Part shown: piece by piece, positions 32,805 through 42,626 of the stretch
Numbering within the stretch: the first letter of the stretch is position 1
How the letters are laid out: each line of letters starts with the position of its first letter
Assembly (NCBI GenBank): GCA_964430735.1
Contig: CAYSFB010000003.1
Span: forward strand, 2,039 to 66,038
DNA length: 64,000 nucleotides
Direction of reading: 5' to 3'
DNA from: an uncultured Planctomycetia bacterium
Lineage (GTDB): Bacteria > Omnitrophota > Gorgyraeia > 2-02-FULL-51-18 > JAGOUK01
Made by a program: the position numbers and the translations under genes
Notes under the pieces: model-generated
What the model was told of the DNA's origin: nothing
Databases searched by the model: none
The model's input: the letters and a program-made list of their open reading frames with translations, nothing else

Positions 32805-33677
32805 ATGAGACCCTTTTTTGAAAAAAATCGCGTATTTCTGGAGATGATCAAGTTTGAGCATACGGTGTTTGCGCTGCCGTTTGCTTATCTGGGGTATGTG
32901 TTTGGGGCGGGCGGGGAGTTGGATTTGCGGGAGCTTCTGCTGATCACGATTATTATGGTCGCGGCGCGGACGGCGGGGATGTGTCTCAATCGGATTATTG
33001 ATATTCGGATCGATGCGAAGAATCCGCGGACGCAGCGGCGGGCGTTGGTGACGGGGGAGCTTAGTAAGAATTTTGCGATCGGGGCGTGTGCGGTGAGCTT
33101 CGTCGTGTTTATCGCGGCGGTGTTTCAGCTGCCGAAGATCTGTGTCGAACTGCTTCCGGTGGCGGTTGCGCTTCTGGTGGCTTACCACTTCATGAAGCGG
33201 TACACGATCCTGTGCCACTTCGGCGCGGGACTGGTGCTGGCTTGCGCGCCGATCGGCGGGTGGCTGGCGGCAACGGGGGTGATGGAGCCGGGGGCGATCG
33301 CGCTGGGGTTGGGTGTCATGTGCTGGGTGGCGGGGTTCGACATCTTCTACAGTCTGCAGGACGCGGACTTTGACCGGTCGGCGCGGCTCTACTCGATCCC
33401 GGCGCGGTACGGGGAGGAAACGGCCCTCAAAGCGGCTGTTTGGGCCCATGTGGGAGTTCTGATTTTATTCTCGGCGGTTGGTATAATGTTGCGGTCCAAC
33501 GGGGTGTATTGGGCGGCTTTGGGGCTTGCGGCGGCCATTCTCGGGATCGAGCACTTTTTGGTCCGGCAGGACCGCGCCAAGTATGTGAATACGGCTTTTT
33601 TTACGCTCAATGGGGTTCTCAGCATCGTTTTTTGCGGCATCGCGGCCTTCAGCATGCCGATCAAGTTCGCGCAGTAG
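32805..33677 (+). CDS. UbiA-family polyprenyltransferase (MqnP-like)
   Basis: Multi-TM protein with the NRIIDIRID aspartate-rich motif. Confidence 0.8.
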   Translation: MRPFFEKNRVFLEMIKFEHTVFALPFAYLGYVFGAGGELDLRELLLITIIMVAARTAGMCLNRIIDIRIDAKNPRTQRRALVTGELSKNFAIGACAVSFVVFIAAVFQLPKICVELLPVAVALLVAYHFMKRYTILCHFGAGLVLACAPIGGWLAATGVMEPGAIALGLGVMCWVAGFDIFYSLQDADFDRSARLYSIPARYGEETALKAAVWAHVGVLILFSAVGIMLRSNGVYWAALGLAAAILGIEHFLVRQDRAKYVNTAFFTLNGVLSIVFCGIAAFSMPIKFAQ

Positions 33678-33699
33678 CGGCAACCGAACGGTTTTTTTC

Positions 33700-34311
33700 A
33701 TGAAGCACATTATTTTTGCCGTGACGGGCGGGTCGGGGGCGCCGATCGCCCAGAGGACGCTTGAGCTTTTGCTGGCGGCGGAGGATGTGCGGGTCACGAT
33801 GCTGATGAGCGATTACGCGCGCGACGTCTGGCGCGCCGAGAACGGGATCGACCTCGGTAAGACTCAAGGCGACCTCGCGGCGGGCCTCGCCAAACACTTT
33901 ACGCTGAACAGCCGGTTCGAGCTCATGGAAATTCGGAACATGGCCGCGCGCGTGTCGTCCGGTTCCGTGCAGAACGAAGGCATGATTATCGCGCCGTGCA
34001 GCATGTCGACGCTGGGCACGATCGCCAATGGGATCACGATGAACCTCATCCACCGCGCGGCGAACGTGATGCTCAAGGAAAAGCGGCAGCTCATTCTGGT
34101 CCCGCGCGAGAGCCCGTACAGCCCCATCCATCTCAAGAACATGCTGGAGCTGGCGCAGTGCGGCGCGCATATCGTCCCGGCGACGACGGCGTTTTACCAC
34201 CAGCCGAAGACGGTGGGGGACATGGTCGACTTCGTCGTGATGAAAGTTCTCGACCTGGCGGGCGTCGCCCACGGGCTCGACAAACGCTGGAAAGGCATCG
34301 AAACCGACTAA
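33700..34311 (+). CDS. ubiX: Flavin prenyltransferase UbiX
   Basis: MKHIIFAVTGGSGAPIA...; ~200 aa flavoprotein fold. Confidence 0.85.
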   Translation: MKHIIFAVTGGSGAPIAQRTLELLLAAEDVRVTMLMSDYARDVWRAENGIDLGKTQGDLAAGLAKHFTLNSRFELMEIRNMAARVSSGSVQNEGMIIAPCSMSTLGTIANGITMNLIHRAANVMLKEKRQLILVPRESPYSPIHLKNMLELAQCGAHIVPATTAFYHQPKTVGDMVDFVVMKVLDLAGVAHGLDKRWKGIETD

Positions 34312-34332: not shown

Positions 34333-35427
34333 ATGCAGGTCATCCAGGAATTCACCGACATCTGGGCCAAGGTCCAGGCAGGCACCCCGCTCACGCGCGA
34401 AGACGGCTACCGCCTCATCAAATCCACGAACCTGGCCGAGCTCGGCTACATGGCCGATTACGTCCGCCGGAAAAAGCACGGCAAGAAGACCTACTTCACC
34501 CATTCGATCAACGTGAATTACACGAACCTGTGCGTGCTGACGTGCAAGTTCTGCGCTTTTTCGCGGACGAAGAAGGATCCGGATCATTACACGTGGACCG
34601 TGGACGAGATCACCAACAAGGTCCGCAACGCCGCCAAGAAGGGCGTCTGGGAAGTCCACATCGTCGGCGGGCTTCACCCCGACAAGCGCATGGATTACTA
34701 CGAAGACATGTGCCGCAGCATCAAGGCGGCCTGCCCGGGCGTCCTCATCCAGGGCTTCACGGCGGTCGAGCTCGACCTGTTCGCGCGGCAGAACAAGATC
34801 GACGTGCGCGAAGTCCTCACGCGCCTCAAGGCGGCGGGCCTCGGCGGCGTGCCGGGCGGCGGGGCGGAGATTTTTGCGGAAAAAGTGCGCAAGGAGATCT
34901 GCGGGACCAAGATCACCGGCAAACGCTGGCTCGAAGTTCACGAAGTCGCGCATGAAGTCGGCTTCCGGACCAACGCGACCATGCTCTACGGCCACATCGA
35001 AAGCCCCGAGGACCGCGTGGACCACATGATGGACCTGCGCGACCTGCAGGACAAAACGGGCGGCTTCCTGGCCTTCGTGCCGCTGGCCTACCTCCCGGAA
35101 AACAACGAGCTTCAATGCCCGCGCACCACGGGGATCACCGACCTGCAGGTGCTGACCGTGTCGCGCCTGCTCCTCCACAACTTCGACCACATCCGCCAGC
35201 TCTGGAACTACGTCGACAAAAAGCTCATCCAGGCCGCCCTCTACTTCGGTGTGGACGACCTCGGCGGAACCAACTACGACGAGACGATCGCGCGCGAAGC
35301 CGGCTGTCATGAGTCGGGCTTTACCCACGGCGAGCTGATGGACCTCATCCGCCGCACGGGGCACGAGCCGGTCGAATCCAATTCCATCTATTCCGAACTG
35401 CGCAAGGACGAGCTCGTCGCAGCTTAA
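34333..35427 (+). CDS. Radical SAM menaquinone biosynthesis enzyme, MqnE/MqnC family
   Basis: CxxxCxxC (CKFCAF) and MqnC/MqnE-type conservation; the two paralogs cannot be assigned from sequence alone. Confidence 0.75.
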   Translation: MQVIQEFTDIWAKVQAGTPLTREDGYRLIKSTNLAELGYMADYVRRKKHGKKTYFTHSINVNYTNLCVLTCKFCAFSRTKKDPDHYTWTVDEITNKVRNAAKKGVWEVHIVGGLHPDKRMDYYEDMCRSIKAACPGVLIQGFTAVELDLFARQNKIDVREVLTRLKAAGLGGVPGGGAEIFAEKVRKEICGTKITGKRWLEVHEVAHEVGFRTNATMLYGHIESPEDRVDHMMDLRDLQDKTGGFLAFVPLAYLPENNELQCPRTTGITDLQVLTVSRLLLHNFDHIRQLWNYVDKKLIQAALYFGVDDLGGTNYDETIAREAGCHESGFTHGELMDLIRRTGHEPVESNSIYSELRKDELVAA

Positions 35428-35430
35428 CCG

Positions 35431-36318
35431 ATGACCCCGACCCCCAAGACCCTGCGGCTCGGCTCGATCGCGTACATCAATTCGCTGCCGGTCGACCTGG
35501 GGATCCTGAAGGGCGCGGTCGATCCGGGTCCGGATGTCACCATCATCCCGGACGTTCCGAGCGGCCTTAATGCGCACGTGATCGCCGGCCGGTTGGACAT
35601 CACTCCCGTTTCTGCGCTTCATTACGCCGACAACGCCGACAGCCTGGTCCTTTTGCCGGACCTTTCCGTGAGCTCCGAGAGCGGCGTGCAGAGCGTGCTG
35701 TTGTTTTCGAAGCGGCCGATCCTTGAGATCGGGCGCGCCCCGATCCGCATGACCGATCAGGGGAGGACGACGCCGGCTCTTTTGAGGATTTTGCTCGAGA
35801 AGCGCTACGGGCTCAAGCCCCTGTACCTACTCGGGCCCTCGACCTCGGACCTGTCGACGGTCCTGGACGACGCGATCCTGCTCATCGGCGACGACGCGCT
35901 GCGCGCGGCGGATTCGCCCGAGGCCGCCGGATGGCAGGTGACCGACCTCGCTCAGGAGTGGCAGGCCTGGACCGGCCGCCCGTTCGTGTTCGCGGTCTGG
36001 ACCGCGCGCCGCGACTTCTGGCAGAAGCATCCCGACGACGTGCTGCGCGTACTCGCGGCGCTGCTTAAAAGCCGCCGGTGGGCCGCGGAGCATGAGTGGG
36101 AGCTGATCGACGAAGCCGAGCTTCGCAGCGGCCTCAAGCCCGACCGGCTGCGGCGCTACTACAAGGAGCTGCGGTTCGACATGGACGTGACGCTCGTGAA
36201 GGGGATGATGCAATATTTTGATATGGCGGCGCAGTTCGGGATCCTCCGCAAGGCCCCGAAGCTGGAATGGCTGCCGGCAGGACTGGCAACGCAACAAGGA
36301 GCGACGACGCATGGTTAA
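35431..36318 (+). CDS. MqnA/MqnD-family protein (chorismate dehydratase or 1,4-dihydroxy-6-naphthoate synthase)
   Basis: LRLGSIAYINSLPV N-terminus typical of the family. Confidence 0.7.
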   Translation: MTPTPKTLRLGSIAYINSLPVDLGILKGAVDPGPDVTIIPDVPSGLNAHVIAGRLDITPVSALHYADNADSLVLLPDLSVSSESGVQSVLLFSKRPILEIGRAPIRMTDQGRTTPALLRILLEKRYGLKPLYLLGPSTSDLSTVLDDAILLIGDDALRAADSPEAAGWQVTDLAQEWQAWTGRPFVFAVWTARRDFWQKHPDDVLRVLAALLKSRRWAAEHEWELIDEAELRSGLKPDRLRRYYKELRFDMDVTLVKGMMQYFDMAAQFGILRKAPKLEWLPAGLATQQGATTHG

Positions 36319-37420
36319 CGCACGGCAAGAAGTGGAACGACTGCTCGACAAGGCCGAATCCGGCCAGCGGATCACGACGGCGGAAGGGGAGCTCCTCTTC
36401 ACCGAAGCCAATCTTTTTGAGCTCGGCGCCGTCGCCGAGCGCCTGAAGCACCGGCGCGTTCCGGGTTCCGACAAGCAGGCGACTTTCGTCGTCGACCGGA
36501 ACATTAACTACACGAATTACTGCAACTCGCTCTGCAAGTTCTGCGCCTTCTACCGCATCCCCGGCGACACCAAAGAGGGCTATGTCCGCGGCATCGACGA
36601 AATCTTCCAGAAGATCGACGAACTCGTCGCCATCGGCGGCACCCAGGTCCTCATGCAGGGCGGCCACAACCCCGACCTCGGAATCGAGTACTACGAGGAC
36701 CTGATCTCGAAGGTGCATGCGAAGTTTCCGCAGGTGATCATCCACTCGCTGTCGGCCTCGGAGATCTGCCACATCGCCAAGACCTCCAACATCAGCCGCA
36801 AGGAAGCGCTCGAGCGCGTCCGCGCAGCCGGCATGGAATCGCTCCCCGGCGGGGGTGCCGAGATTCTCGTCGACCGCGTCCGCAACCGCATCAGCCCCTT
36901 GAAGACGAAGACCGCCGACTGGGTCGACGTCCACCGCACGGCCCACCAGCTCGGCATGAAGGGCACCGCCACGATGGTCTACGGCTTCGACGAAACGATC
37001 GCCGAGCGCATGGAGCACTTCGAAGTGGTCCGCAAGCTCCAGGACGAAACGGGCGGCTTCCGCGCCTTCATCCCCTGGAGCTTCATCTCCGAATCCACGG
37101 AAATGGACCTCCCGCACCGCACCGGTGACGAATACCTCCGTATGCTCGCTATCAGCCGCATCATGCTCGATAACATCCAGCATCTCCAGGCAGGTTTTGT
37201 GACCGAAGGGGAAAAGCTCGCCCAAGCCGCCCTGAGCTTCGGCGCGGACGACTTCGGCGGGATCCTCATGGAGGAGAACGTGGTGACCGCGACGGGATTG
37301 GAGTTTAAGGGATTCCCGAAAGAAGAGGCGGTTAGGCAGATTCGGGAGGCGGGTAAGATACCTATACAACGTAATACTAGATACGAGTTAGTGCAAGCAT
37401 TTCTCGATTTACTCAATTAA
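36311..37420 (+). CDS. Radical SAM menaquinone biosynthesis enzyme, MqnC/MqnE family (3' end AT-rich and chimeric)
   Basis: CNSLCKFCAF cluster; paralog of the gene at 34333. Its last ~22 codons (37355-37420) have island-like low GC. Confidence 0.75.
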   Translation: MVNARQEVERLLDKAESGQRITTAEGELLFTEANLFELGAVAERLKHRRVPGSDKQATFVVDRNINYTNYCNSLCKFCAFYRIPGDTKEGYVRGIDEIFQKIDELVAIGGTQVLMQGGHNPDLGIEYYEDLISKVHAKFPQVIIHSLSASEICHIAKTSNISRKEALERVRAAGMESLPGGGAEILVDRVRNRISPLKTKTADWVDVHRTAHQLGMKGTATMVYGFDETIAERMEHFEVVRKLQDETGGFRAFIPWSFISESTEMDLPHRTGDEYLRMLAISRIMLDNIQHLQAGFVTEGEKLAQAALSFGADDFGGILMEENVVTATGLEFKGFPKEEAVRQIREAGKIPIQRNTRYELVQAFLDLLN

Positions 37421-37422
37421 TT

Positions 37423-39420
37423 ATGAAAATGTTGAATGATGATGTTCGTCCGGGTTTTCATCGAGCGTTCAACTCGGTTGATTATACGGAGAGCGAACAA
37501 CTAATCTTACGTAAATTATCCCAAGAATGGTACATAACGAAATCAGGCACTCCGATTAACTTGGGAGCCTCCAGTTACAGATATTTCTTTATGAAGCCCA
37601 CGGCGATTTTTTCTGAGATGTTCAATATTGATAGAGAAATCGTCTGCATTTTCAGCCCATACACTCATTTTGAACCAAGAACATTAGACGCCTTTGATGA
37701 AGCGGTAGCGAAATCCCCTCAATTACGGTTAGAAAGCGTATGCCGCGTTTTAATAAGTGCAACTGAGAGCATTGAACAAAAAATTGAAGACTTGATCAAA
37801 TCCGATCCTGAGCAGCCTGTTGTAATTCCTTTCTCATACAAAGAATTGTTGGATACTAAAGACCCTTACTTTATCCGCAATCGATTTCGCAGACACTTTT
37901 ACTCAAGAGATTTGTTTGCTTTTTCTTCACCCCTCAAGAAAGATTTGTACTTTTTTGGGCGCAACCCACTCGTCCATGATCTTGTTAACAGACACAGATC
38001 TGGCGAGCATGCCGGATTGTTCGGTCTCCGTAAGAGTGGTAAAACTTCTATCATCTACGCAATCGAGCGATTGATGAGCGCAAATGATGAAGTGTATGTG
38101 TCGATCGATTGCGAGAGCCCGTCCATTCACAGGCTTCGCTGGTATGAGTTGCTGCATAAAATCGTTGCTAAGTATCACGCTACTAGAGATTCAAAAATAA
38201 GCTTGCGGCCTATGCAAGAATATACAGAGAAAATGGCTGCCGAGTTATTTGAATCCGAGATATTAGCTATTTACGGGTCAAAAAAGCGCAAAAGATCTCT
38301 ATTTGTTTTTGATGAAATAGAGCACATATCACCCGACACAGGCTCTTCAGAACATTGGAAATCAAATGAAGATTTTGTGCTTTTTTGGCAATCCATGCGA
38401 GCATTTCATCAGCGCCATAGTGAAGTTATGACTTATATGCTCGTTGGCACCAATCCGTCAGCAGTTGAACGGGCGAAGTTATGTGGAGGGGATAATCCGT
38501 TATTTGGTTCCATTCCTGTCCAGTATGTGCCGAGTTTTACCTATGAGCAAGTGCGCGAAATGGTTAGAAAACTTGGTAGGTATATGGGGATAAAGTTTGA
38601 TGAGATGGTATTTGCCAAAATTGCCGAAGAATGGGGTGGTCACCCTTTTTTGATCAGGCAATTTTGTAGCAAGATTAATAGTGCATGCACAGGGGATCGG
38701 CCGATAAACGTTGATAGGGCCATGTATGAATCGGTAAAGAGATCATTCGCTGAATCAGCCGATGATTATCTAGAGTCTATCGTCCAAGTCTTACACGATT
38801 GGTATCGGGATGAATATGACATGTTGATGTTTTTGGCGATGAATGATCACGAGACATTCAAGAAATTCGCCACAGACCACAATCTCTACACGCGCCATTT
38901 GTTGGGATATGGACTTATACAGCAAAGTGAACACGGCTTCACTTTTATAATTAGCTCGCTTCGAGAGCATCTCGCCAAAAAGCATAAATTCAAAAAATTA
39001 AACATGACTACTCAAGAAATGGTCGATGAATGCTCTGCTCGTCGAAATCAGCTTGAAAAGTCCTTAAGATTGCTTACGAAAAGACTAATGAAGTTGGAGT
39101 ATGGAGATAAAGCGGTCGAGGTGCTGTTGGGAGCAATCCCAGGCGAAAGAAGAGAAAAAATGCGTGGTATGACTATAGAGCAATTAACGAACTCAGATTC
39201 TTGTCCTCTATATTTTTCAGATTTGACCGCCCTACTTAAGAGGGAGTGGAAAATATTTGGAAAAATCTTCTCATTCGATTGTGAAAGAATGTCAGTCATG
39301 ATGGCTGATATAAATCGATATGCTAGACCTGACGCGCATGCAAAGAACATAAAAAAGGAAGATTTTGATCTGGTGCGTAATTATTTTGAGCGGATTGAAA
39401 AAGCCATATCCGATTGGTAG
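37423..39420 (+). CDS. Island-encoded P-loop AAA+/STAND-type NTPase with a C-terminal R-x6-H (HEPN-like) motif; candidate defense protein
   Basis: Low-GC codon usage. FFGRNPLVHDLVNRHRSGEHAGLFGLRKSGKTS (Walker A, nt ~38023-38049), LFVFDEIEH (Walker B, ~38299-38325), C-terminal RYARPDAHAK (~39316-39345). Resembles the Orc1/archaeal-ATPase (PF01637-like) signature. Confidence 0.6.
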   Translation: MKMLNDDVRPGFHRAFNSVDYTESEQLILRKLSQEWYITKSGTPINLGASSYRYFFMKPTAIFSEMFNIDREIVCIFSPYTHFEPRTLDAFDEAVAKSPQLRLESVCRVLISATESIEQKIEDLIKSDPEQPVVIPFSYKELLDTKDPYFIRNRFRRHFYSRDLFAFSSPLKKDLYFFGRNPLVHDLVNRHRSGEHAGLFGLRKSGKTSIIYAIERLMSANDEVYVSIDCESPSIHRLRWYELLHKIVAKYHATRDSKISLRPMQEYTEKMAAELFESEILAIYGSKKRKRSLFVFDEIEHISPDTGSSEHWKSNEDFVLFWQSMRAFHQRHSEVMTYMLVGTNPSAVERAKLCGGDNPLFGSIPVQYVPSFTYEQVREMVRKLGRYMGIKFDEMVFAKIAEEWGGHPFLIRQFCSKINSACTGDRPINVDRAMYESVKRSFAESADDYLESIVQVLHDWYRDEYDMLMFLAMNDHETFKKFATDHNLYTRHLLGYGLIQQSEHGFTFIISSLREHLAKKHKFKKLNMTTQEMVDECSARRNQLEKSLRLLTKRLMKLEYGDKAVEVLLGAIPGERREKMRGMTIEQLTNSDSCPLYFSDLTALLKREWKIFGKIFSFDCERMSVMMADINRYARPDAHAKNIKKEDFDLVRNYFERIEKAISDW

Positions 39421-39435: not shown

Positions 39436-40101
39436 GTGAAAGAATTAATATTTGGACCTGGAGGTTTGATTTTATTGGGCGCTTTGCTGAGCGCGAGCGG
39501 CGCGCTTTGGGCTGGTCATCGGCAGCAAATATTCGATAGTGATATTCACTTAAAAAATCAGCAGCTTTTGTCAAAAAGTGACGAGATAGCACGAATGCAA
39601 GAGACCATTCGGCTCTCTGTAACGGGATCGGGTTACTGTTTCATTGCCCTCACAAATCTCAATCGTACCACCAATGAACAGAATGTAATGCTTATGAATC
39701 CCGGCGGGTACCCTCTTTATGATGTCGGAATTCGCGTAGTTGATTTGAAGAAGTGGGAAGATTTGGCAAAGGGCGGATCTATTAATTACGAGTCAATGAG
39801 AGCTGCCGAAACAATTTATCAATTTGGTGAATTAGGTCCGGAAAGAGTTTTGGATATAGGCAAATGGGATTTGGGGGATTCTGATGCGAGAGATTTTAAT
39901 ATTTTTATATCAAGTCGGAGCGGTTTTATATCGGAGCGTCTCCGGCTCAGAAGGGTCGAAGGCGAATGGGTTGCGGCCACTCAAGTCGTTAAGGGTAATA
40001 CGACAATTAAAGATAACGTGATTCAATTGGAGGGCGAAATTTTACACGAGACTATTCATGACAAATTCCCTCGAAATGCATCTGGCGTGGTTGATTGGTA
40101 A
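39436..40101 (+). CDS. Island-encoded hypothetical protein with an N-terminal transmembrane anchor
   Basis: GTG start; LIFGPGGLILLGALLSASGALWAG helix, then a ~190-aa soluble domain with no recognisable motif; same low GC as the ATPase gene. Confidence 0.5.
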   Translation: MKELIFGPGGLILLGALLSASGALWAGHRQQIFDSDIHLKNQQLLSKSDEIARMQETIRLSVTGSGYCFIALTNLNRTTNEQNVMLMNPGGYPLYDVGIRVVDLKKWEDLAKGGSINYESMRAAETIYQFGELGPERVLDIGKWDLGDSDARDFNIFISSRSGFISERLRLRRVEGEWVAATQVVKGNTTIKDNVIQLEGEILHETIHDKFPRNASGVVDW

Positions 40102-40107
40102 GCATAT

Positions 40108-40989
40108 ATGGATAGCAGGATTTTGCAAGAATGTACTGATTTGGCTTTTAAAGGAAAGATTACTTTTCCCGAAGTCGTGCGGCGTATGGCCGATACTGGC
40201 GTGGAACGGTACTGCGCGGACCTGGTCACTTTTCAAAAAATCATTTATGCAGCTGATGGGCAGAATCACACCGTTGCGCTACCGCTGACGAACCCACCCG
40301 CAATCGCCCAGGAATTCTCGGCCGCCGGCGTGATCGAAGCCATCCGGACCATCCAAAAGGGTGGGATCGACTACCCGGAATTCCTGAGGCGTATCATGAA
40401 ATCAGGAACCGTCTTTTATGACGTGTTCATCCGCGGGGGGAAGACCATTTATGTGGGGCGGAACGGGGATTTTCACGTGGAAACTTTTCCAATATCCAAG
40501 GAGGGCAATATCATGGCAAACGCAATTCCTAATGGGTATCGTTCCGTGACTCCGAGCATGACGTTCAAAGACACTCAGAAGGCGCTCGACTTCTACAAAA
40601 AAGCGTTCGGCGCGAAAGTGATGGACCTGTTTCCGAGCCCGGCCGGCAAGGGCATCATGCACGCGACGATGCAGATTGGCGACTCGATCGTCATGATGGG
40701 CGACGAGATGCCGACCTGCAAGAGCGCGGAGACGATGGGCGGTTCGCCCATGGGGCTTTTCATCTACGTGCCGAATGTGGACGAGGTGTTCCAGCAGGCG
40801 GTGGCGGCGGGAGCCAAGGTGACGATGCCGGTGGCGGAGATGTTCTGGGGCGACCGCTGCGGGAACGTCAAAGACCCGTTCGGCTACGACTGGATGATCG
40901 CCACGCACACCAAGGACCTTTCCAAGGAAGAGATCCGCAAGGGTGGCGAGGCGTTTTTCGCTCAGATGGCCAACCAGAGCAAGTCGTAA
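40108..40989 (+). CDS. DUF1398 (YbcV-like) fused in frame to a VOC/glyoxalase (PhnB-like) domain
   Basis: N-terminal 135 aa match DUF1398 (...PEFLRRIMKSGTVFYDVFIRGG...). An internal AAGGAGG Shine-Dalgarno plus ATG at 40513 begins a complete PhnB-like VOC domain with no intervening stop. Confidence 0.6.
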   Translation: MDSRILQECTDLAFKGKITFPEVVRRMADTGVERYCADLVTFQKIIYAADGQNHTVALPLTNPPAIAQEFSAAGVIEAIRTIQKGGIDYPEFLRRIMKSGTVFYDVFIRGGKTIYVGRNGDFHVETFPISKEGNIMANAIPNGYRSVTPSMTFKDTQKALDFYKKAFGAKVMDLFPSPAGKGIMHATMQIGDSIVMMGDEMPTCKSAETMGGSPMGLFIYVPNVDEVFQQAVAAGAKVTMPVAEMFWGDRCGNVKDPFGYDWMIATHTKDLSKEEIRKGGEAFFAQMANQSKS

Positions 40990-41024
40990 GTCAATAAGAC
41001 CCGCGCCAGGCGAATCATAAGCTC

Positions 41025-41258
41025 ATGAAAAGATCGACGAACCCGCTGGATGGCATGACTCTGGAGAAGATTCTGGAGCGGCTGGTTCAGGAGTATGGCT
41101 GGGCCGAGTTGGGGCGGAAGGTCAAGATCCGCTGCTTCAATGCGGACCCGAGCATCAAGTCGAGCCTGACCTTTTTGCGTAAGACGCCCTGGGCGCGGAC
41201 GAAAGTCGAACAGCTTTTTATTGCGCTTCCAACACGGTACATCAAGAAGCCCAGTTGA
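41025..41258 (+). CDS. DUF2132 (VF530-like) small protein
   Basis: [28 protein letters not shown]...[18 protein letters not shown]. Confidence 0.65.
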
Positions 41259-41269
41259 GGGAGGGGATT

Positions 41270-41560
41270 ATGAGGCAAAAACTGAACGCTTTATTCATCG
41301 CCCTGATGCACGTCGCCTTTTACCCCGCGGCGGCGATTGCTGCAGCATTGCCCTGCTCCGAGGAGTACGGCAGGATGAATGAGGCGTCCCTTCTGATGGC
41401 GTCGCCGGACCTCAAGCCCGAAGCCATTGAAGAAGCGCAGAGGATTCTCGATGAGTGGCAGCCCAAGTATGATGCGTGCGTGAGTGATTACGGCGAGCGC
41501 AACGGCGCTGACGCACGGGCTGATTTGGAAGTCCGGCTCGCCGCGGGAGGGCAGTCCTGA
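41270..41560 (+). CDS. Hypothetical secreted protein
   Basis: GGAGGGG RBS before ATG 41270; signal-like ALFIALMHVAFYPAAAIAAA. Confidence 0.4.
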   Translation: MRQKLNALFIALMHVAFYPAAAIAAALPCSEEYGRMNEASLLMASPDLKPEAIEEAQRILDEWQPKYDACVSDYGERNGADARADLEVRLAAGGQS

Positions 41561-41862
41561 TGCGGCTCACCGAAGGAAAGGGCTGGACGCTCAGCTCCGT
41601 CGACAGTTCACATCCTCAGCCCAAGCCGGCCCAGAAGGCCAATCCGAATTCGCCCAAGCCCCATATCCGCATCGAGAAACGCAACGGCAAGGCCGTCACG
41701 TGTATCGCCAATCTTCACACCTACGGTTCCGACCGTCTGGAGAAAATGGCCAAAGAGTGGAAGGCGCAATTCGGCACCGGCGGCACCGTCAAAGACGGTG
41801 TGATCGAGATCCAGGGCGACCGTGTCGCCGCCATCAAAGAATGGTTCGCCAAACAACGTTAG
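41560..41862 (+). CDS. yciH: Translation initiation factor SUI1/YciH family
   Basis: ...GKAVTCIANL...KEWKAQFGTGGTVKDGVIEIQGDRV... Confidence 0.8.
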   Translation: MRLTEGKGWTLSSVDSSHPQPKPAQKANPNSPKPHIRIEKRNGKAVTCIANLHTYGSDRLEKMAKEWKAQFGTGGTVKDGVIEIQGDRVAAIKEWFAKQR

Positions 41863-41871
41863 GAGGGAAGC

Positions 41872-42069
41872 ATGGCCGGTAAAGCTAGCAGCAATACCTC
41901 GAGTCTTAAAAAGATCAGCGCGAAGAAGGTCAAGGTCTTCAAGGTCCGCAACCGCCGCTGCTATGCGGCGATCTGCATGGACAACCTCTGCGAAGGGACC
42001 ACGCCTCAGCAGGCCGTCCGGCGCCTCTACCATCCGCTGCGGCGGATGGGGTTCGAGCTCGTCCTGTAA
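41872..42069 (+). CDS. Hypothetical small basic Cys-containing protein
   Basis: 65 aa with RRCYAAICMDNLCEG; GGAGGG RBS upstream. Confidence 0.35.
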   Translation: MAGKASSNTSSLKKISAKKVKVFKVRNRRCYAAICMDNLCEGTTPQQAVRRLYHPLRRMGFELVL

Positions 42070-42096
42070 CCCCCCCAGGCAGGCGAAGAATCCAGT

Positions 42097-42125
42097 TTGA
42101 CAACGCCGCGTCCTTCCGCTATCAT
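42097..42125 (+). promoter_or_regulatory. Sigma70-like promoter for rplM-rpsI
   Basis: TTGACA, 17 nt, TATCAT ~40 nt upstream of the rplM ATG. Confidence 0.55.
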
Positions 42126-42164
42126 ATGCGACTCTTAATCTCGTAAGGAATATAAGGATTTATC

Positions 42165-42626
42165 ATGAGCACAAGCACCGCTATCGGAAAAGACCGTTTG
42201 ACCGCCAAGGATTCTTGGTACATCGTCGACGGCAAAGACCAGGTTCTCGGACGTCTCGCGTCGTTTTTGGCGATGGCGCTCATGGGCAAAAACAAGCCCA
42301 CGTACACCCGTCACATCCCGAGCCGCACCCACATCATCGTCATCAACGCCGACAAGATCCGCGTCACCGGCAACAAGATGGACGACAAGATCTACAAGTA
42401 CTACTCCGGTTTTCCGAGCGGTCTGCGCGAAGCCAAGCTCAAGCAGGTGATCGCGAAGGATTCGACCCGGCCGATCAAAGAAGCCGTTTGGGGAATGCTC
42501 CCGAAGACGGCACTGGGTCATGACATGCGGACGAAGCTTTTCGTCTACAAAGACGCGACGCATCCGCACATCGCTCAGGCCCCTCAACCCCTGGCCGCAC
42601 CGGCCTCCGCAAAGGCGAAAAAGTAA
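42165..42626 (+). CDS. rplM: 50S ribosomal protein L13
   Basis: WYIVDGKDQVLGRLASFLAMALMGKNKPTYT... Confidence 0.95.
   Translation: MSTSTAIGKDRLTAKDSWYIVDGKDQVLGRLASFLAMALMGKNKPTYTRHIPSRTHIIVINADKIRVTGNKMDDKIYKYYSGFPSGLREAKLKQVIAKDSTRPIKEAVWGMLPKTALGHDMRTKLFVYKDATHPHIAQAPQPLAAPASAKAKK

Follow-up and report, generated by a model that had tools for sequence, protein, structure and literature searches.

The menaquinone operon and the genes behind mqnC

The window analysed here, a stretch of 64,000 nucleotides whose nearest genomes are Omnitrophota MAGs, carries a menaquinone operon of the futalosine pathway that leads through UbiA (32805-33677), UbiX (33610-34311), an MqnE-like radical-SAM gene (34333-35427) and a VitK2_biosynth gene (35431-36318) into mqnC (36311-37420, + strand), the gene for cyclic dehypoxanthinyl futalosine synthase. 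The first 8 nt of mqnC (36311-36318) are shared with the end of the VitK2_biosynth gene, stop codon included, and the tail of the latter shows a mildly reduced GC3 of 0.59, the normal size of a coupling effect in this genome. The curated equivalog model TIGR03699 matches residues 19-360 of the 369 residues of MqnC (model positions 1-341 of 342) with 460.9 bits against a cut-off of 428.1, while the MqnE model scores the product below its own cut-off; of the double name MqnC/MqnE proposed in an earlier note on this DNA, only the first half is therefore retained.

Directly behind mqnC, an island of 2.7 kb with a GC content of about 40% interrupts a genome of about 62% GC and contributes two genes. 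The first (37423..39420, + strand) encodes a 665-residue AAA+/STAND-like P-loop NTPase with weak Pfam matches to AAA_22, AAA_14, nSTAND1 and HEPN_Swt1, each below its curated cut-off. An AF2 model of the protein (pLDDT 79) returns PAB2304, RuvB, RFC and Avs in Foldseek, matches that reflect generic AAA+/STAND folds only. The C-terminus possibly forms a Swt1-like HEPN domain; it scores 18.8 bits against HEPN_Swt1 (cut-off 27.5), with a match in four of 20 family members. This region also bears a conserved GRPDAH motif (R-x3-H), in which H639 is invariant and R635 is found in at least 90% of members, with a spacing that departs from the canonical HEPN Rx4-6H. No system in PADLOC-DB v2 accounts for the cargo, the sole match being to PDC-S01, which covers 56 residues of the P-loop region at E = 6.7e-4, and no name for the NTPase emerges from PADLOC, NCBIfam, a PDB sequence search or phage genomes.

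The NTPase family is well conserved, with members 53-58% identical across phyla and a best non-self match of 58%. In most of 80 metagenome loci (L045-L124) spread over many phyla, the gene has a lower GC content than its flanks (0.34 versus 0.64, for example), and it usually forms a single-gene island with sharp borders and without a recombinase. More distant homologues of about 35% identity are found on conjugative or mobilisable plasmids of Klebsiella and Ralstonia, and the family is absent from phage genomes. None of the 80 loci places the NTPase beside mqnC, DUF1398 or the membrane protein described below, nor do their upstream regions show similarity to the mqnC tail. Chimeric gene ends were considered as a trait of the NTPase family and rejected, given that composition boundaries elsewhere are mostly intergenic and lie 70-240 nt upstream of the gene. 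A defence role for the NTPase is plausible.

The second cargo gene (39436..40101, + strand) encodes a putative membrane protein of 208-221 residues with an N-terminal hydrophobic stretch, its start being either the GTG at 39436 or position 39475, as called in the Logan assembly L043. It belongs to no known family, with no match in Pfam, NCBIfam or PADLOC and no tblastn homologue in any fetched locus, including the position beside mqnC in relatives. The proposal that it is a conserved partner of the NTPase was discarded, as it is missing from all 80 loci. The cargo is tightly packed into the operon, with 2 nt between mqnC and the NTPase and 6 nt between the second cargo gene and the gene that follows, and no promoter-like or terminator-like site was detected between mqnC and the NTPase or within the mqnC tail. 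With no such site detected, read-through from the mqn operon probably accounts for transcription of the cargo.

The right flank begins with a DUF1398-VOC (glyoxalase-type) fusion (40108..40989, + strand), a conserved gene with orthologues 77-86% identical. Its DUF1398 and VOC/glyoxalase (PhnB-like) parts are fused in one ORF, and the fusion is kept in five relatives at this same level of identity. Gene callers start the ORF 26 codons late, yielding 267 residues in the window (P0241) and 266 in the relative L127, and the DUF1398 part is an internal duplication (repeat D7, 40168 versus 40375). The remainder of the interval (40990..42164, + strand) holds VF530 (41025-41258), a small ORF, orf101 (41255-41560), and SUI1 (41560-41862), ahead of rplM, which starts at 42165 and is followed by rpsI and argC.

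A break in composition and ancestry within mqnC

The composition of mqnC changes abruptly near its 3' end. GC3 amounts to 0.85 over codons 1-347 and to 0.26 over the last 23 codons, for which the binomial probability of finding 6 or fewer GC-ending codons of 23 at p = 0.847 is 5e-10. A likelihood change-point analysis places the base-level shift in GC at 37354 and that in GC3 at codon 348 (37352). When the tails of 53 host-like ORFs of the window are compared, the last 22 codons of mqnC (GC3 0.27) rank lowest, set against a mean tail GC3 of 0.75 (sd 0.14) and a second-lowest value of 0.50. The stop codon TAA (37418-37420) is separated by only 2 nt from the ATG of the NTPase at 37423. The earlier note had described an AT-rich end of about 22 codons on an otherwise GC-rich gene, with its stop 2 nt from the NTPase start, and both observations are borne out.

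Comparison with relatives refines the position of this break. Syntenic relatives were recovered by a search with the DUF1398-VOC protein, the closest of them being Logan assembly SRR23592399 (L127), which has 96% MqnC identity. Over the last 570 nt upstream of 37357 the two sequences are 92% identical, and the mismatch rate rises from 7.9% there to 33% over the next 30 nt (Fisher 1.3e-4), with third-position mismatch rising from 22% to 90% across the junction (Fisher 2e-5). The final bases common to both before the junction read GGT AAG AT, and homology to this relative stops at 37377 by blastn and at about 37359 by blastn-short. Change-point and divergence shift together confine the left junction to 37354..37359, with the change of ancestry at 37357/37358, such that mqnC divides into a native GC-rich part (36311..37357, + strand; codons 1-349, GC3 0.85) and an AT-rich 3' end (37358..37420, + strand) of roughly 20 codons and the stop, encoding IPIQRNTRYELVQAFLDLLN. 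The island edge thus lies inside the 3' end of the radical-SAM gene, where the earlier note had placed it.

This structure is reproduced exactly in two independent Logan assemblies, L044 and L043, the latter of which spans mqnA to rplM. Since these assemblies derive from two sequencing runs, the junction is not an assembly artefact, and a chimera that joined two organisms during assembly or binning at the conserved mqnC motif, which the metagenomic origin of the genome and the location of the junction in such a motif might have suggested, is highly improbable, the same structure being present in the 269 kb NCBI contig, with host-like DNA on both sides of the island and flanking reading frames intact at both junctions. 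As a separate observation, the contig of a relative with 89% MqnC identity (L023:8530-8543; JAGVCY010000087.1, Omnitrophota MAG WC_9) ends 3-4 nt beyond the position of the window's junction, and this end may represent a strain-level or assembly-graph branch produced by allele variation at the same site.

The AT-rich segment is nonetheless genuine mqnC. In an alignment of 17 MqnC sequences it encodes GKIPIQRNTRYELVQAF and aligns with the orthologues free of gaps, the junction included. Residues G348, Q353, R354, N355, T356 and Y358 are invariant among the 17 orthologues and all are kept in the window, and the peptide at the junction is nearly unchanged (IPIQRNTRYE in the window, MPIQRNTRYE in L127). 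Nine of the 10 codons of this conserved block differ from L127 at the third position, compared to 22% in the rest of mqnC, and the non-conserved end differs in both sequence and length (ELVQAFLDLLN versus EVVRTFDEAPAKA). Because the invariant residues are kept while the DNA diverges abruptly from the closest relative, the tail is both foreign and homologous, namely the mqnC 3' end of another, AT-rich source. The mqnC tails of the GC-rich relatives L125 (JGI 3300055001) and L041 are GC-rich, in keeping with an island-supplied C-terminus as the earlier note proposed. The conserved residues and gap-free alignment rule out an arbitrary stretch of island sequence read through to a stop. Being of full length, in register and in possession of all conserved residues, MqnC is presumably functional. 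Of the tail peptides compared, that of P0010 comes closest (12/20), yet its gene is GC-rich and therefore uninformative on the donor. The window contains no displaced native tail, and the mqnC 3' end has no second copy there; tblastn with the window's own tail and those of its relatives finds only mqnC and the homologous tail of its MqnE paralogue.

At the right edge, blastn homology to the relatives L127 and L125 returns at 40124/40126, which places the end of cargo-specific DNA between 40101 and 40123, an edge region (40102..40123) made up of the 6 nt spacer and the first five codons of the DUF1398-VOC gene. AT-rich composition extends further, over 40108-40168, to a change-point at 40168 that corresponds to codon 20 of this gene. 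The first 20 codons have a GC3 of 0.30 in the window and 0.25 in L127, compared to 0.55-0.70 in four other orthologues. A chimeric right junction at 40168 was considered as the edge of the insertion and rejected, since the DNA from 40124 to 40168 is about 80% identical to L127 and is AT-rich there too. This shared feature suggests that the AT-rich start of the DUF1398-VOC gene is probably older than the insertion, and it may be the scar of an earlier exchange that predates the window's own.

Variable cargo between mqnC and rplM

The interval between mqnC and rplM is occupied differently in each relative. In the window, mqnC is followed by the NTPase and the membrane protein and then by the DUF1398-VOC gene, whereas in L127, with flanks 86-90% identical to those of the window at the nucleotide level, an AT-rich gene with SLFN_AlbA_2 and HATPase_c_4 domains (Schlafen/AlbA_2) occupies the same place. 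In L125, mqnC is followed by TfoX_N, an AT-rich NACHT-like NTPase and two unknown ORFs ahead of the DUF1398-VOC gene, and in L041 and L042 by HTH, Pkinase, TPR, AOX, ParE and further genes ahead of SUI1. The contig of L128 stops short of mqnC and carries a TIR_2 protein upstream of its DUF1398-VOC gene. Two more distant, low-GC relatives, L131 and L001, have an empty site in which rplM follows 69 and 92 nt after mqnC. Four different cargo sets (window, L127, L125 and L041) are thus found between mqnC and DUF1398-VOC or rplM, and in this Omnitrophota lineage the interval is a hotspot of horizontal gene acquisition. Neither an integrase nor a transposase nor a tRNA gene was found in any allele examined, as judged from Pfam and NCBIfam searches of the window ORFs, Pfam lists for L041, L125 and L127, and ARAGORN.

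The stretch between the DUF1398-VOC gene and rplM varies as well (window 40990-42164; L127:10801-14966; L125:10873-15695), with small genes that include VF530, SUI1, DoxX, RHH, HigB/A-like pairs, DUF1428 and a zinc ribbon; accordingly, there are several insertion points in this one interval.

A chimeric gene end is not confined to the window. The mqnC tail of L127 is chimeric too, with a GC3 of 0.35 versus 0.90 (L127:8380-9900), although its breakpoint lies several codons downstream of the window's and its stop codon falls 1 nt before the cargo ATG. Both junctions fall within the last 14-22 codons of mqnC. L125 has a native-like mqnC tail (GC3 0.86), and AT-rich DNA begins instead inside the 3' end of TfoX_N, where it replaces about 47 tail codons (L125:5776-8495); the start of the NACHT-like NTPase overlaps the TfoX_N stop by 4 nt.

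Proposed cassette exchange and comparison with known systems

Taken together, these features are best described by a cassette exchange in which the core genes on either side recombined homologously and the left crossover took place within mqnC, a reading to which we assign a probability of roughly 0.6. A fragment from a lower-GC relative would have brought the NTPase and membrane protein, at about 40% GC, from a donor in which the cargo already lay directly behind mqnC. Recombination in the conserved flanks would then have put this fragment in place of the resident allele. Given a left crossover at 37357/37358, the last 20 or so codons of mqnC would become the homologous, AT-rich version of the donor while the rest remained native, and an otherwise native gene would consequently end in the donor's AT-rich codons. 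The in-register join, together with the lack of a recombinase, att sites and a displaced tail in the window, argues for such an exchange, and the variation of breakpoints between lineages fits homologous crossovers rather than a fixed core site. Excess homologous recombination in flanking core genes is a property of many hotspots without mobile elements, for which the same model was put forward (Oliveira et al. 2017, PMC5635113). A suitable type of donor is plausible because the 'NTRYE' clade of MqnC has low-GC members (GC3 about 0.45 in L131 and 0.42 in L001). Against this reading, the search for a donor returned none, the nearest relative of the NTPase being 58% identical and the 80 NTPase loci having no mqnC neighbour. 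Partners with GC3 values as far apart as 0.85 and about 0.3 would also recombine rarely and very inefficiently, and the clustering of both mqnC junctions within the last 14-22 codons hints that the mechanism was more local or that tract length was strongly constrained.

Phage 21 and e14 integrate at the 3' end of icd and supply a substitute end, and many islands reside at tRNA genes. By analogy, an element could have integrated at the 3' end of mqnC, bringing a replacement end in its attP, with its integrase and most of the element later deleted so that only the NTPase and the membrane protein were left. A replaced end that is homologous and in register would suit such an element, as would the proximity of the window and L127 junctions and the contig break of L023 within 3-4 nt of the junction, which hints at a recurrent breakpoint. 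This site-specific integration is nevertheless unlikely, as neither the window allele nor the other hotspot alleles examined encode an integrase, no displaced native mqnC tail or tRNA is found in the window, and the breakpoints of the window and L127 differ. In particular, neither island ORF has a recombinase domain in Pfam or NCBIfam, and ARAGORN finds no tRNA.

The earlier note had also drawn attention to an imperfect direct repeat that could be an attachment-site remnant. The pair does exist, matching at 14 of 20 positions between 37391..37410 (+ strand; mqnC tail codons VQAFLDL) and 40123..40142 (+ strand; DUF1398-VOC codons 6-12, LQECTDL), but a 20-mer match at least as good arises in 11-30% of dinucleotide shuffles of both junction regions, and the pair is therefore no more than a chance-level match. 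The left copy sits 34 nt inside the foreign DNA, off the junction, and the right copy has better matches inside the island (D13 and D14, 88% over 16 nt). The right copy is also coding sequence conserved in relatives with other cargo, which, like the lack of an integrase and tRNA, opposes its function as an attachment site, and it does not bracket the island on the right, where homology resumes at 40124 and AT-rich composition runs to 40168. A repeat search of the window found no junction-flanking repeat. Of the earlier interpretation as a whole, the supply of the C-terminus by the island is upheld in the form of a homologous foreign tail, and the attachment site is abandoned.

Illegitimate or homology-facilitated illegitimate recombination, in which only one side is anchored by homology, the mqnC join forms at a microhomology, and selection keeps an in-frame and in-register product, is another explanation that we regard as improbable. 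The very divergent composition of host and donor makes long identical stretches unlikely and would favour joining of this kind, and in L125 the AT-rich DNA gives TfoX_N a non-homologous tail, as expected of it. The join in the window, on the other hand, is exactly in register and free of indels, which is hard to reconcile with illegitimate joining unless selection was very strong, and the same is true of L127.

It is also conceivable, if doubtful, that cargo of this type travels as an 'operon-tail module', equipped with a surrogate 3' end for the host gene that a dedicated local mechanism, and not generic recombination, splices in frame 1-4 nt from the stop. A candidate mechanism may be the break-induced co-conversion of flanking sequence, by analogy with intron-less homing. 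Were this the case, the recurrence in the window, L127 and L125, along with the contig break of L023, would point to the last conserved motif of mqnC as a favoured site of cutting or crossover.

Recoding of the native tail in situ is a still poorer description of the locus. Following the landing of the cargo, the tail would have turned AT-rich under selection for an unstructured translation-initiation region of the coupled gene; in the window as in L127, the AT-rich 45-65 nt do lie just upstream of a cargo start that follows the stop by 1-2 nt, and a mild drop in GC3 is seen elsewhere in this genome, at gene starts and at some gene ends within operons. Yet the 10 other tightly coupled host pairs in the window have tail GC3 values of 0.59-0.95, never near 0.27, and the cargo has kept its 40% GC without amelioration. 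Recoding is equally difficult to reconcile with the third-position differences from L127 in the conserved block, and with a non-conserved end that differs in sequence and length.

Returning to cassette exchange, the large difference in GC content between donor and recipient explains why its scar can still be seen in mqnC. The locus offers an example, resolved to the base pair, of how defence-like genes move in an uncultured phylum where no mobile-element machinery is apparent, and the mqnC-rplM interval is a place to seek new defence genes in Omnitrophota. It also holds a warning for annotators that island borders drawn from composition can lie inside intact, functional core genes.

The comparison with the icd elements is informative in both directions. 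As with phage 21 and e14, the chimeric mqnC appears to be kept functional by a homologous substitute 3' end; unlike them, the mqnC island is without an integrase, att repeats or a displaced 3' end, and its breakpoints differ between lineages. The NTPase likewise invites comparison with the nSTAND/Avs conflict NTPases, with which it shares a P-loop AAA+/STAND-like core, a possible HEPN domain, a patchy distribution, a GC content below that of its hosts and occurrence on plasmids; in contrast to these, it falls below the Pfam cut-offs and has no PADLOC match and no solved relative by sequence.

A further parallel is provided by gnd of E. coli, a housekeeping gene beside rfb that hitch-hikes with the polysaccharide locus, according to work cited within PMC5635113. 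In both cases a variable cassette is transferred together with part of the core gene next to it, which leaves a mosaic gene, although the replacement in mqnC is limited to the last 20 or so codons, and a defence-like cargo takes the place of the surface-polysaccharide locus. The comparison extends to the hotspots flanked by core genes that lack mobile-element genes and turn over by double homologous recombination in those flanks (PMC5635113), known also as sites of defence genes in E. coli and P. aeruginosa (PMC10121019, PMC10250203). Like these, the mqnC-rplM interval has conserved flanks, a cargo that differs in each relative and an empty site elsewhere; it bears no integrase, transposase or tRNA, and its breakpoint lies inside the flanking core gene (left flank, 37357/37358). 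It differs from the known cases in its residence in uncultured Omnitrophota, in partners that are far apart in GC content (GC3 0.85 versus 0.26), in a flanking tract of only about 63 nt, and in a cargo set into a biosynthetic operon with spacers of 1-6 nt. The mqnC case is a further instance of a known phenomenon, that of mosaic flanks at a recombination-driven hotspot.
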